A stretch of DNA of 64,000 bases from Candidatus Uhrbacteria bacterium CG10_big_fil_rev_8_21_14_0_10_48_11 (lineage in GTDB: Bacteria > Patescibacteriota > Patescibacteriia > GWA2-46-9): contig PFET01000001.1 of the NCBI GenBank assembly GCA_002793855.1, positions 19,520-83,519 of the forward strand, given 5' to 3'. Positions 58,079-64,000 of the stretch are shown here, one piece after another. Position 1 is the stretch's first letter; each line of letters starts with the position of its first letter. Both the position numbers and the translations under genes were made by a program. The notes under the pieces were generated by a model, which was given only the letters and a program-made list of their open reading frames with translations, searched no databases and was not told where the DNA came from.

Positions 58079-58880
58079 TTATAAAGTACTAATCGGCCGA
58101 GACTGGGTAATATAAAACTTATTCTTAACCAACGCCCATTCTATGTCTTGTGGATGTTTATCATGTTTTTCAATACCAGAACAAATCTTAGCTAACTCAA
58201 CTATTTGTTTACCAGTAAGCTTTTGCCTGCCACCAACTTTAGCACTTAATTTTTTTTCTATGTTTCCTTTTAATGCTTTAACAATAGCTATTTTTTGCTC
58301 AGAAACATTTACATCCAACAAAGAATAATCTTTTTTCAAAATAATATAAGTGCCGAGTGTTACTTGGCCGGAAACAAGGGCTTCACCTAAACCTAAACCA
58401 GCCTCAATTACCATTTGGTCGTAATCGTTCGTTACTGGATGCACGGTAAAAGTAATACCTGATACTTCAGATTGCACCATTTGCTGAACTACCACCGCCA
58501 CGGAAACTGGTTTTTTGTGTAATTTTTTTTCAAAACGATAAAAGATAGCGCGTGAAGTAAACAAAGAAGACCAACATTTAATTACTGATGGAATTAAATT
58601 TTTTTGCGAAACATTCAAATAAGTTTCTAACTCCCCCGCCCAGGAAGCTACTTTTGAATCTTCAGCTGTAGCCGATGAGCGTACAGCCACCAAAATATTC
58701 TTACCTTTGCTTCATTTTTTATATTCCTCCTTTATTTCCTTCTGTCAATCAAGTGGCATTTTTTCGCGATGAATAATATCGCGCCTTTCTTCCGGCGCTT
58801 TTTCCACCGAATTAATATTGTTTGATTTTACACTATGCAAAACGTTTTCCAGCTCAACATTAATATCTGTCTCAATCATA
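58079..58880 (-). pseudogene. PEP/pyruvate-binding (PEP synthase N-terminal, ATP-grasp) domain gene, degraded at 5' end
   Basis: VAVRSSATAED..ASWAG, VVVQQMV, GLGEALVSG, QDIEWA, QSRPI; upstream part frameshifted. Confidence 0.8.
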
Positions 58881-58917
58881 TTTAAAGGTCCCAACAAACA
58901 TAAACAATAACTAATCT

Positions 58918-59802
58918 TTACTTTTTACGTTTTTCTTCTTGCATTTTTCTATAAAGGTCTTGTAACTCATCAAGGCGATTCATATCTACACCATATTCTT
59001 CTCCTCGGAATTTTATCTTTAAACTCACTTCACCGTCGCTGTCTCGGTTAATGTCAAAAACAACTCCTTCACCGGCATTAAAAGCGCCACCTATTTCCTC
59101 AAGTTTTTCAAACCCACGAGTTCCGTCCTTTTGAAGCATTATTTCGCTCAATAAGGCATCCGGCTTTGGACCGTGGGTTAAATTTTCGATACGAAGGTCT
59201 GTATCTTCGTATAAACGGTCAGACATTTTTACTCCAATACTAAGTCGATGGGCAAGTTCAGCCGCCACTTCTTCTGATGTTAAGGTACCAGCCGCTTTGG
59301 CTTTATCTGGATTATCTATCCAAAATTGAATTACTTCTGTTACATCTTTTGCACCGGCTTCCTTAGATTGTTTCATAACCGTCGCAAAATTTTTTACCGG
59401 GTCAAGATCCCCCGAGCGATAAATAACTACGTCCCCCGGTGGCATTTTTCCATGACCAGCTTTTTCTTGTGCCTCGGCGCTCATTTCTTTATTTACCAAA
59501 GCGGCAGCACCGGCTTCATCTCTAAAACTTCCTGCAATATGACCACCCGTCTCTCTCCCTCTCTTTACCCTTTTACTACCAGTAACCATTAAATAAGTTG
59601 CTTCATCTGCTAAATCTCCACCAGTTTTTTGGGCATTAGCAATTCCTTGTTCGGTTATAAAATCAGCTGACATCCCGTCGGGTAACTTACCAGGATTCTC
59701 GTGACGTCTCAAAACAAACTGTACAGAAACATTTTTCCCTTTTTCTCTACCCGCATCTTTGGCTTCTCTATGCGCCTCAGAAAATGACTTTTCTCTAAAC
59801 AC
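58918..59802 (-). CDS. Hypothetical protein, possibly histidine-phosphatase-like
   Basis: FVLRRHE, R..ET and LTHG resemble histidine phosphatase superfamily motifs. Confidence 0.5.
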   Translation of the reverse strand: MFREKSFSEAHREAKDAGREKGKNVSVQFVLRRHENPGKLPDGMSADFITEQGIANAQKTGGDLADEATYLMVTGSKRVKRGRETGGHIAGSFRDEAGAAALVNKEMSAEAQEKAGHGKMPPGDVVIYRSGDLDPVKNFATVMKQSKEAGAKDVTEVIQFWIDNPDKAKAAGTLTSEEVAAELAHRLSIGVKMSDRLYEDTDLRIENLTHGPKPDALLSEIMLQKDGTRGFEKLEEIGGAFNAGEGVVFDINRDSDGEVSLKIKFRGEEYGVDMNRLDELQDLYRKMQEEKRKK

Positions 59803-59917
59803 AATAATGATATATTAATTTACTAACTTTTATAAGTATACACTTTTATTGGCGATTTGTCAAATTAAACGTAATGGTTCAATGCCTTTGCTTCACCCTA
59901 GGGTAAACTATGGGGAT

Positions 59918-60823
59918 ATGGCATATACAATAAATACTCATATAGCAAAGGTCAGCATGGAAGGTATTAAGTTATATAGACAACAAGAGTGGGGTACTAG
60001 AATGGTGGCTAAACCTCTTGGAGTAAACCAAAGTACAGTTGTACGTTGGTTGGCCAAAGCTCCTCAGTATGGCTGGTGTCACATCCCTTCGGAAAGTAGT
60101 AGACCTAAGATTTCTCCAAGAAGAATGGACAAAGCTATTGAAGACAGAATTGTTGAACTGCGACCGAAGAGAGGTAGATGCTCTGAAGTGCTTCAGGCCG
60201 AGTTAGCCAGAGAAGGAACAATAGTGAGTTTGAGTACGGTGCAAAGAGTATTGAAAAGAAGGTATCTAATAAAAGAACGTAGTCCGTGGAAAAAGTATCA
60301 CCTTTCAGGTGATAGACCGGTGGCAGAAAAGCCAGAAATATTAGTTCAAATGGATAATATTCATATTATGAAAACTAGAATAGAACGTATGTATGTAACA
60401 ACTTTGATTGATGTATGTTCTAGAGGGGCTGATGCCAAGGCCAGTACCAGAATCAACACTAGGAGAAGTATAGAAGTGGCCCAAACGGCTGAAAGTTTAG
60501 CCCCTTTTCCCTTCTCTTGTATTCAAACTGACCATGGATCAGAGTTTAGTACTCATTTCACTTGTAGACTGAAAGCTAAAGGTATTCGTCATAGACATAG
60601 TCGAATAAGGCAGCCCAATGACAATGCTCACGTTGAAAGATTTAATCGCACTATCCAAGATGATCTTAGAACTGAGATAAAAAGATACAAACATCACCCA
60701 CCCACCTTAAACAAACATATTAAGCTCTGATTAGACTACTACAACAATGAACGACGTCATCTTGGTTTGGGGATTCAAACCCCAGTTGAAGCGATGCGAA
60801 GGTCTTGGTCTCTATGCGATTAA
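59918..60823 (+). mobile_element. IS481-family transposase (HTH + rve), interrupted by one TGA near the C-terminus
   Basis: QMD, IDVCSR, QTDHGSEF, NAHVERFNRT; YYNNERRHLGL...TP continues in frame after the TGA at 60728-60730. Confidence 0.8.
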
Positions 60824-60930
60824 TACTACTTTATTCTACGAACTATCCCTTTATTCGCATCTACCCCAGTACTACAACACCGCTACGCATGTTGAGTATG
60901 GGGCAAGCCTCTGCTGACGTACTAAGCAAC

Positions 60931-62314
60931 TCATACTTTAATTAGAGTTACTACTCCTCTATTCGCATCTACCTCTACAAGGTCGCCATCTTTGAAAGCC
61001 AAAGTGGCAACTTTTGTGCCAATTACACAAGGAACATTTAATTATCGAGAAACAATAGCGGCATGTGAGGTAATATCACCTACGTTCGTTACAATAGCTC
61101 CGGCTTTACGCATAGCGCTCACAATATCCGGCGTGGTGGCAATAGAAACAAGAATATCTCCTTGCTTCGTCTTTTTACCGTCAGTAAAAGGATTAGTAAT
61201 TATTTTTACCCGCCCTTCAATATGACCAGAACCCTTACTCACCACTAAACCTTTTATGATTTTGGTGTTTTGATAAACTTTGGGGTTATATATCTTAAAT
61301 ACCACTTCGGCTCTTTGACCATAAAATTCAGCAATTTTCTCCTTCCCCGACACCCAAACATAAGCTTTTTGCAAGAAACTATTTTGTTACAATTAAGTTT
61401 TTTGCCCTCGGCTAATTGCAATACTTCCGACGGCCAACACCATAGCCAGTCATTAAACTTCCAATTATTACGACGACCGATTTCTTTGACTATTAAATCT
61501 TCATAATATTGCATACGCCAAATATAACCCTTGCGTAAATCTTACGCCACCAAATTGTATGACTAAGTTGGTCTACGGCTAGTTGAATATCTCGAGGAAG
61601 CTTTAATTTTTTAACTAAATTCTTTTTCTTTTTTTTAGTTTCAGTAATTTGTTGAACAATTTGTTTTTTTAATGTCGGCGTTATTTTGAATAATAAATTT
61701 TTTAGTTGTCTATAAAAATATTTTTCATTTAAAATCCTGTTACCGCCATAACTGTTTAATAGCCAATGATATTTTTGAGTGTGTTCGGCAAGGGCTATTT
61801 TGAATAATTTGTTGTTTTTTATAGAGGCCAAGTTCAACAAATCTAGCTCCTCTTGTTGAAAAAATGAACACTTAACAGGGGCTAATAATATTTCTAAATA
61901 TTCTTCAGCTTTACCAATGTTAATTTTTTTTAATCTACGTAAAAGCCACGGCTCACCTCCATAATTGGCAATTTCCGGCACATGGACAATATTACAAAAA
62001 AAATCTATAAATTGATGAAAATTTTTATAGAGAGTTGATAATGCTTTATCGGAAAGTTCTTTGAAATTAATCGCCTCTAAAACTTTTGCCATCTTATAAT
62101 ATTGTTTAACCAAATCTTCCCACAGATTCCAAAGAGTTTTGTATTTATTTTTATTAAATAAATAAGACACAAAATATTTTTTGCCAATTTCTTCTAGATC
62201 GGAGCGATAACCATTATAAGTGACTTTATTGTCTTTAAAAACCAATATGGCTTTGGGCCATGGCCAAGGACAGTATTTTTTACTAACTCTCATGACCCCT
62301 AATAATATTTCCAC
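60931..62314 (-). pseudogene. PEP-utilising enzyme (C-terminal His mobile domain) pseudogene
   Basis: Frameshifted pieces ending TTPD...GAIVT..G.ITSHAAIVSR*LNVPCVIGTK.AT...DGDLVEVDANRG. Confidence 0.85.
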
Positions 62315-62524
62315 CCAGACGCCTATATAAAGAGGTCAACCATCAATAGGACATCATTTGAATAACTTTTTTGTGGAATCAATACGATAAAATAGGCTAT
62401 ATATTTCTATGTATGTCCCTACAAAAACTCTATTGTACGTAAAAATCAGCAAAGAATCGAGTGGGGTAAAAATGCTTATTTTACAGTTTTTCCTAATGAA
62501 AATGCGACGTTTTGACGCTAGGTC

Positions 62525-62553
62525 TTGACAGATTTGAAGGGGTGCGCTATATT
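62525..62553 (+). promoter_or_regulatory. sigma70-type promoter of the large structured RNA
   Basis: TTGACA-17 bp-TATATT. Confidence 0.75.
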
Positions 62554-62558
62554 GTTTA

Positions 62559-63984
62559 GTTCCTTAAATGGAACACCCTGCTCTTTAGATATTAAACAGC
62601 TCAGAGGAGAGAGACTCTGTAGCACCACCCTCGGGTTCACGCCCGGCGTGGCGCTGCGCAAAAAGACGTAGCTCTCCAAAATAGTTGCGTCTTTTTGTTT
62701 GCTGGCAAGGTGTGCGGCAACTTCTGGGGCTAGACCTGTTTTCGGTAACACGAATCAGGGCGGCTCGCGGTAAGACTGGGTTGGTCTTGACTAACCTGCT
62801 CCTACTTCAAAGCCCTTAACTTGGGTGGTCTTCGGACCAAAACTCAAGTCCTAGCCCGGAGGTTGGTGGACATCTTACGATGACGCCTTTGTGGTGGTCC
62901 CGTTATCGGGGCACCCACCGACGTGGAGGGTCAGACTCGTTCCGCTTAACGTGGACGAGGGTTCCGGCGGAAGGCTGGTTCTGGTATCTACTAGAACTTC
63001 CCTTCTCAAAGAACATACCAGCACGCACCTTCGGGTAGTGTGTTGCCCTAACCCCCAGATCGGTGGGTTATTCTATAACTCACAAACATTGAAGTAGAGA
63101 TGTCCCTCGTGCCGCAACGGCACATCATCTCTGCTTACAACTCGCGTGGCATGAGAGTTCCTGCCCATCGGGGGACGAGGCAGGACCAGAAAAGGAAACC
63201 GAGGGAAATTCCGCCCTCACCTTTTCGCTCGTATTGCTGCGCCGGCGGAGTGGTTGTGGTTGCGCGTATCCCTGCACCCACCCTCCGCCGAATTTTGACC
63301 GAATGGCCTTAGGTTAGATTTTGTCTAACCTCCACCTCGGTTACTGGCGCCGACGAACAATAAAAGTCCTCTCTAAGAGGGGGCCAACACTCGATATTGT
63401 ACTCGTCCGCGCTGTTCAGGGGGCTTGGCTTGTCTGTACTCGCCAACGCCCCCTTCCTCTTTACGCGATAGAGAAACGCGCCCATTGCGATGAACGGCAT
63501 GAACCGTTAATCTCAATGGGCGCCTTAGGCCTCCTTCGGCGCAAACCGGCACCGGCGGCGAATCGGGCAAATGAGCCGCCGGTGCCACCAAATTTTCCGA
63601 GGAGGTACGATCCTCCACTCCTCGGGATCGGAGGGAGTCAGTAAAGGGTGAGACGTTTCCCAAAATGCTCACCCCAAGCTGTACTCCCTCCAACTATCCA
63701 CTGGGTCACCGCCCCCGACCTAGTGGACTAGGGAGAAGAGTGTGCGTGTTAGGTAAGTCGCCCCACAAATGACTAACCTTTACCGCACTCTTCTCCCTCC
63801 CTTTCTCTGTGCTATCCTACTAATGAGCAACTGTTCATTTCCTCTCGTGGGGCAAGTAGCTCTCAAACACAAACGTCTCTCAAACGAGAAACGTATGTCG
63901 CGAGAAAATCTCTCTCCTCCTACTTGCCCCGCGAGAGGATACGCAAACTAAAATCCCATTCAAAAGTATGGGATTTTAGTTTTG
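62559..63984 (+). ncRNA. Candidate giant (~1.4 kb) structured non-coding RNA of unknown class
   Basis: Promoter and terminator bracket a GC-rich tract of consecutive hairpins with G.U pairs and UUCG loops; no credible ORF. Confidence 0.75.
63945..63984 (+). terminator. Terminator hairpin closing the large RNA
   Basis: AAACTAAAATCCCA-loop-TGGGATTTTAGTTTTG. Confidence 0.75.
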
Positions 63985-64000
63985 TAAATAATAGTAATAA

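Follow-up and report, generated by a model that had tools for sequence, protein, structure and literature searches.

In Firmicutes, RNAIII and RsaE/RoxS act independently of Hfq through a pyrimidine seed that is displayed in a loop and is complementary to Shine-Dalgarno (SD)-like purine tracts. Attenuation in the pT181 and pIP501 systems acts by blocking an antiterminator. As far as the accessible parts of the published accounts go, the RNA of these two systems pairs with the nascent leader and induces attenuation (PMC5415839; PMC3753616), a diffusible RNA decides between terminator and antiterminator in the many leaders of the T-box regulon (PMC10877136), and OLE, ROOL and GOLLD are large, ornate, non-coding and covarying RNAs (10.1101/2024.12.08.627333; PMC9723947). 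Gene regulation in the reduced bacteria considered here is little known. Within the window, the whole 64,000-nucleotide stretch of DNA that was analysed (G000:C3:19520-83519, from the 891-kb genome G000), we find a 1.4-kb RNA that, judged by its sequence, belongs to an uncatalogued family of regulatory RNAs in ultra-small bacteria, of which it is the long form. We envision the locus as the gene of a trans-acting attenuation RNA that stands behind its own attenuator.

That the locus is a genuine RNA gene appears almost certain from its signals and folding. From the plus strand it would yield three modules: a leader of ~140 nt, a hairpin body of 1.14 kb and a 3' stem that displays a guide. The sigma70-type promoter named in the original prediction, TTGACA-17-TATATT, is indeed found at 62525-62553 and recurs as TTGACA-(16-17)-TATGCT in the family genomes G001, G002 and G003; at the start site of the 1.4-kb RNA, as inferred from promoter spacing, lies a 5' terminal hairpin (62559-62574) that is kept in 4/4 family RNAs. 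It is followed by the purine box GAGGAGAGAG (62604-62613), which would serve both as the 5' strand of an antiterminator and as the target of the guide, by a variable leader hairpin inside the antiterminator (62618-62658), present with differing sequence in all four family leaders, and by a putative conditional intrinsic terminator, or attenuator, with a U tract (62659-62700) and an element complementary to the box (62670-62677). Next come the ORF-free multi-hairpin body (62701-63839), whose 5' 385 nt are conserved with compensatory changes, and the guide domain (63840-63939), composed of a 20-bp stem, an inner hairpin (63873-63894) and a single-stranded loop bearing the invariant guide AAAUCUCUCUCCUC (63906-63919). 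Box and guide are mutually complementary (62604-62613 and 63910-63919), a relation that the original prediction had overlooked. The unit closes with a final terminator (63945-63984), a perfect 15-bp inverted repeat (63945-63982) followed by T, as had been proposed; it is probably common to the convergent rny-ymdB transcript beyond the window.

The locus had been described as a single giant, almost continuously folded non-coding RNA. All 13 listed helices (11 two-arm helices and both UUCG hairpins) were located where expected, and the minimum free energy (MFE) structure pairs 10 of the two-arm helices completely and one over 15/16. The 1430-nt RNA folds with -677 kcal/mol, compared with -475 +/- 12 for 12 dinucleotide shuffles (z = -17); 200-nt windows score z of -2.3 to -13 from 62600 onward, as against -1.2 to +2.0 in 10 upstream windows. 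The plus strand, favoured from the outset, folds better than the minus strand (-677 versus -640), and the promoter lies on it in all four family members. A protein-coding or decayed gene was rejected over 62700-63085, the region covered by the codon-position and gap test: G000/G001 substitutions fall 27/33/32 over the three codon positions, revealing no codon periodicity, and 8/9 gaps are not multiples of three and shift the frame. No Rfam 15 family reached the gathering score between 60000 and 64000, nor did this search bring out a catalytic signature, and the homologue search returned relatives of 1.15-2.7 kb with compensatory changes in 3/4 family members. The large, conserved, structured, non-coding and uncatalogued unit of the prediction thus stands. 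To read it as a single giant scaffold, sponge or ribozyme fits less well, as the first hairpin (62659-62700), whose terminator role had been missed, is by its sequence a conditional terminator, and the class-wide conserved part is the 3' guide domain only. Since that hairpin would terminate conditionally, the 1.4-kb form would be a read-through product.

Known RNA classes fit the locus poorly. Expanded RNase P RNA and expanded tmRNA were rejected because G000 has a canonical RNase P RNA on contig C11 and a tmRNA on C8, SRP RNA because neither it nor the Ffh M-domain was found in 5/5 family genomes (G000-G004, 88-100% complete, four of them >= 92%), and a CsrB/RsmY-type or Hfq-dependent RNA because CsrA and Hfq were not found in 5/5 genomes searched. 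A relaxed scan for tmRNA produced noise alone. A T-box was dismissed as Rfam gave no match to it at E up to 10 (window positions 60000-64000), and 6S RNA on account of the one-sided 14-nt loop and of an accessory hairpin that lies on either side or is absent (57 members). In G000 and G001 the P1 strand of RNase P RNA also matches the guide, but G003 lacks this match, which was put down to chance. Similarly, a 12-nt stretch of the guide-domain loop (63861-63872) that also stands just before the tmRNA resume codon (G000:C8) is not found in G003 and is probably a chance match.

Among 60 relatives searched, the RNA was matched in 3/4 same-family genomes and in 0/56 others. The G001 and G003 versions measure 1.15-1.2 kb, the G002 version measures 2.7 kb with three SD-led ORFs inside, and all family copies are convergent to rny-ymdB; just downstream of the window the unit faces ymdB and rny. 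Conserved in the family are the promoter, the 5' hairpin, the GGAGAGAG box, an A-run/U-run hairpin, part of the body and the 3' domain. Two-sided changes affect 32/126 predicted pairs at 62700-63085 (three sequences) and 11/35 pairs in the guide domain (six sequences), the sequences being few and related in both cases, and whole hairpins have been gained and lost between relatives in the 3' part of the body. The search of G004 (88% complete) yielded REP-like repeats only; a REP-like palindromic repeat is also inserted in the G002 body (L009:5455-5505) and is matched 19 times in G004 and at 6 other places in G002. Two metagenome contigs (L040, L041) carry the guide domain at the rny-ymdB position with an IS1595-like element between promoter and domain and no box in cis, a short form within this neighbourhood. 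Upstream of the unit (58079-62314), the genes of G000 are in pieces, comprising fragments of a PEP-utilising enzyme and an IS481-like transposase (59849-60730), where G001 and G003 have intact ORFs of ~500 aa.

How widespread is the guide domain? A covariance model built from it returned weak matches in other families, 3/4 of which are real compact relatives; match L031, a plain palindrome, was rejected. The common loop AAAHCUCUCUCCUY occurs in 93/401 class genomes (reversed control 14), and this is not the full count because variant members retain CUCUCUCCU alone. Of ~88 loop sites examined, 57 were judged to be RNA genes, a manual decision by which about a third of exact matches are chance; the remainder lie inside reading frames or lack a stem. 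Members form rods of 110-200 nt that often possess a TTGACA promoter and a terminator of their own, and the domain either stands alone at that length or closes operons of up to 7 kb. Across the 57 members, the 14-nt guide has a mean probability of being unpaired of about 0.9, with helices on both flanks, and a fixed filter (guide unpaired on a long stem) passes 52 of them compared with 2/95 viral 14-mer sites among the matches listed. An extra small hairpin lies 5' of the guide in 27 members, 3' in 20, on both sides in 2 and on neither in 8; given this variable placement, display of the guide is the sole conserved feature. Neighbouring genes differ by lineage (murJ is commonest; ftsK, rpoB, rpoC, greA and ftsW also occur), and no fixed protein partner was found next to the gene across lineages.

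Outside the class, the 14-mer occurs in 20/282 genomes (control 10), and 9/24 sites, in 7 genomes, resemble the guide RNA. One out-of-class genome, G585, has three guide genes (L245, L259, L261), one of which ends a 1.1-kb ORF-free unit with four boxes. At the gathering score, Rfam recognised the flanking tRNA alone in 20 homologous loci and nothing in 8 further loci. Phage origin or use found no backing in a blastn search of 50,697 phage records, which gave no match, or in IMG/VR, which gave none to the family pattern. The mostly open-access literature searched does not describe the RNA family, which could stand unnamed in motif-discovery supplements. As far as the Rfam and literature searches reach, the family thus appears to be undescribed.

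Which transcripts might such a guide read? The box GAGGAGAGAG, the complement of the loop, lies 15-75 nt downstream of promoters, and a promoter followed by GGAGAGAR is found in 112/401 class genomes. A reversed-pattern control (0 matches) is unfair because the promoter is reversed too; the same-composition control used instead gave 18 of the first 201 genomes, compared with 55 for the actual pattern. The promoter-plus-box count is inflated because ordinary SD sites are included: 18/31 sites in the first 30 loci are ordinary SD-plus-ATG. As such sites are common and start codons show no enrichment of AGA behind AGGAG (6/147), they were discarded from the leader set, and the notion of the box as a special SD was rejected. 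The box leaders that remain are untranslated; typically they run into a terminator-like hairpin, beyond which lie ORFs with a canonical SD. Operons under them consist mostly of genes of no known function and are accessory across the class; 47/53 first cargo proteins (the 53 chosen from 77 candidates) lack a Pfam family, and many have signal-peptide-like ends, as judged by eye. Of the 93 genomes with the guide, 41 also have a promoter-proximal box, compared with 71/308 of the others, with up to 5 promoter-box matches per genome. In G000, only the RNA's own leader fits the full pattern of box, element and U tract behind a promoter, so that its regulon is small. Box-led units that close in a guide domain were found at at least 28 loci and span 56 to 7232 nt; some contain ORFs and others do not, and an inner promoter is likewise present in some and missing from others. 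The window RNA is one ORF-free example of such a unit. The idea that G010, G126 and G078 encode a 5' piece separately was rejected: of 30 RAGGAGAGAG sites, only the cis box of G078 is promoter-led. Three box-led operons (L195, L220, L166) open with a related P-loop protein, fused in one case to a Csx3 domain and in another to a PRPP-synthetase N-terminal domain.

G000 holds a second large structured RNA or leader rich in boxes (G000:C12:895-1, minus strand, L165; z = -11). It contains 5 AGGAGAG boxes compared with 0.04 expected, their duplexes with the guide range from -14.6 to -23.2, and it has no Rfam match. Its homologue in G001 (L166) continues into SD-led ORFs. The C12 RNA is likely a target or sponge of the guide, and box-rich RNAs of this kind may titrate it. 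It runs into a repeat that is also present at the end of contig C4.

A pointer to function is the overlap of the box with termination signals. The sequence allows the box to base-pair with the 5' arm and loop of the terminator that follows, at a point when the 3' arm is yet to be transcribed. A box-complementary element lies inside the first terminator of 22/33 box leaders, compared with 186/2602 other terminator-like hairpins and 87/937 strong long control hairpins; a terminator was detected in only 33/64 box leaders, and the element is absent from 11 of those 33. CUCUYY followed by a U tract occurs in 28/63 box leaders versus 9/113 boxless promoters, and in 0/16 non-SD box sites of viral contigs among the matches listed. 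Terminator frequency alone differs little (34/63 versus 43/113, p = 0.057) by a first detector that missed visible terminators, including that of G000. Box-leader duplexes are stronger than shuffled ones (mean -12.4 versus -8.5, n = 34), and an SD-consensus query in place of the box yields no such excess of terminator complementarity. All these p-values and statistics overstate the case because the leaders include close, non-independent kin. Within the family, the partners covary: the G002 box ending in GAGUC goes with GACUCUCUCC, and the G003 box ending in GAGACU with AGUCUCUUUC.

When the nascent RNA is folded at growing length, the box:element helix forms first in 4/4 family leaders, and in G000 the antiterminator and terminator states lie within about 1 kcal/mol of each other at the moment when the 3' arm emerges. 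With the box blocked, the equilibrium structure flips in 1/4 family leaders, that of G002, where the terminator probability rises from 0.07 to 1.00; in G000, G001 and G003 the terminator prevails at equilibrium whether the box is available or not (P 0.99-1.00), so that the switch must be kinetic there. The guide:box duplex of G000 is predicted at -21.6 kcal/mol compared with -15.5 for the antiterminator; since the element binds the box less tightly than the guide, pairing of the guide can tip the balance only towards termination. Across the 28 units, guides pair as well with the boxes of others (-19.7 kcal/mol) as with their own (-19.5; permutation p = 0.68). A co-evolved cis clasp was thus rejected as a class-wide rule, and the lack of own-box preference is as expected of a shared trans guide rather than a private clasp.

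We envision a scenario whereby, by default, as long as no guide RNA is present, the box sequesters the terminator arm and polymerase continues past the leader. The guide would capture the box as it emerges, the terminator would fold, a ~140-nt RNA would be released and the operon would be off. The window gene would be both target and source of the guide: read-through yields more guide, and the gene would thus repress itself. Guide and box quite probably pair in vivo, and on the folding model the outcome of that pairing is rather likely attenuation; for the whole scheme, a self-regulating trans-acting regulon in which transcripts terminate because the guide seizes the box of the nascent RNA and so keeps the antiterminator from forming, we put the probability at roughly 60%. 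Conceivably, the full-length RNA pairs its own box with its own guide in a pseudoknot and is stored inactive until cut or refolded, and the 1.14-kb body, which fills the position taken by cargo genes in relatives, might serve as a structured spacer, as a delay or as a stabiliser. The attenuation model does not explain the structural selection on the body or the invariant AAAU.

It is this selection that keeps alive a different view, in which the locus encodes a large RNA that is functional as such or as an RNP scaffold, like OLE, ROOL or GOLLD, the box-guide pairing being a long-range 5'-3' pseudoknot and multi-box RNAs serving multivalent assembly. The compensatory changes and the z of -17 fit such a scaffold, as do the boxes of the C12 RNA, ORF-free long forms in other families (L112-L116, L119, L135, L261) and a family clasp lengthened by covarying flanks (CUC/GAG in G000, CUCGC/GCGAG in G003, UCCAU/AUGGA in G002). 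We nevertheless consider it unlikely, because the guide shows no preference for its own box, many guide genes stand under a promoter of their own and lack a cis box, the body is not found by nhmmer beyond three genomes among the matches listed and its hairpins come and go, and the overlap with the terminator is left unexplained.

An RNA displaying pyrimidines might alternatively act after transcription as an anti-SD sRNA, blocking translation or directing cleavage of SD-led accessory mRNAs, in cells where an SD is rare among core genes. The box does contain the SD core, an SD-like motif precedes only 26/490 long ORFs in G000, CUCC occurs 13 times in the 1.4-kb RNA compared with 3.3 expected, and rny adjoins the locus in the family. 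Moreover, one G000 gene (G000:C8:86555, minus strand), which by eye resembles anthranilate phosphoribosyltransferase, has the entire box for its ribosome-binding site, 35 nt downstream of a promoter-like sequence, and offers the best guide complement among 490 start regions (duplex -19.4). However, the lack of AGA enrichment after AGGAG speaks against this reading, most leader boxes pair with terminators and have no following start codon, and the rny neighbourhood is family-specific, the gene elsewhere preceding murJ, ftsK, rpoB or ftsW; we regard an anti-SD sRNA as improbable, somewhat more so than the scaffold. Very improbable, in our estimate, is a third proposal, by which the domain either supplies the 6S-like decoy of RNA polymerase that these genomes seem to lack or imitates the 16S 3' tail and so binds a ribosomal protein, with box pairing of secondary importance. 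A single-copy rod of 110-200 nt that contains a single-stranded stretch would suit a decoy, as would the position of several members beside rpoB, rpoC or greA and the five family genomes (5/5) in which 6S RNA was not found; a mimic has a precedent in the SD/anti-SD mimic of OLE RNA that is bound by bS21, according to the accessible part of that report (PMC12054373). Yet the rods have no two-sided bubble and no constant upstream helix, their accessory hairpin switches sides or is absent, no 6S match emerged from 20 loci at E up to 5, the guide fits the box (over 10 nt) and not the 16S tail examined, and neither proposal explains the overlap of box and terminator. The 16S rRNA gene itself (G000:C3:65500-65620) carries a long A/U-rich insertion near its 5' end, and the 16S RNA keeps the full anti-SD tail although SD use is about 5%.

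What would attenuation by a shared guide mean for these organisms? Quite speculatively, Patescibacteria may possess a protein-free global switch: dozens of nascent transcripts would bear a 10-nt tag that is recognised by one RNA guide, which would determine whether they terminate, and the regulator would stand behind its own attenuator and a kilobase-long RNA delay line, with multi-box RNAs as sponges; such a switch might toggle a programme of surface and secreted proteins, for instance between free and host-attached life. The gain at hand is a class-wide RNA family absent from Rfam, a defined target tag and a list of candidate regulated operons. The proposed mechanism is testable in vitro, which makes culture of the organism unnecessary, and a naturally occurring attenuator that acts in trans on many targets by way of a 10-nt guide would, if true, be a compact part for synthetic RNA circuits.

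How, then, does the locus compare with described systems? To OLE, ROOL and GOLLD, as portrayed in the accessible parts of their descriptions, the window RNA is similar in being large, ornate, non-coding and covarying; it differs in having no Rfam match, a length of 0.11-7 kb across relatives, a conserved core of only ~100 nt, an internal conditional terminator and, in many relatives, cargo ORFs. With RNAIII and RsaE/RoxS it shares an Hfq-independent pyrimidine seed shown in a loop, but its predicted target is an antiterminator strand in untranslated leaders, not a ribosome-binding site, and its seed is invariant over a bacterial class. The likeness to the T-box, within the accessible account, lies in the choice between terminator and antiterminator by a diffusible RNA across many leaders, whereas here the ligand would be a dedicated non-coding RNA, not a tRNA, and binding is predicted to terminate, not to antiterminate. 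Closest are pT181 and pIP501, for which the accessible sources describe what is predicted here, RNA pairing with a nascent leader to induce attenuation; mutually exclusive antiterminator and terminator structures, as in pT181-type leaders, are found by computation in the target leader. The RNA of those systems is, however, cis-encoded and fully complementary, has one target and starts by loop-loop kissing, whereas the guide RNA is chromosomal and would address several leaders per genome through an invariant guide of 9-10 nt. Unlike the pT181 antisense RNA, the guide lies on the same strand 1300 nt downstream of the box, or at another locus, and, unlike in pT181 or pIP501, it occupies the 3' end of its own attenuated transcript. 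If the model holds, the mechanism would be new as a variant of RNA-induced attenuation and would not belong to the pT181 group, as it is not cis-encoded and has many targets.
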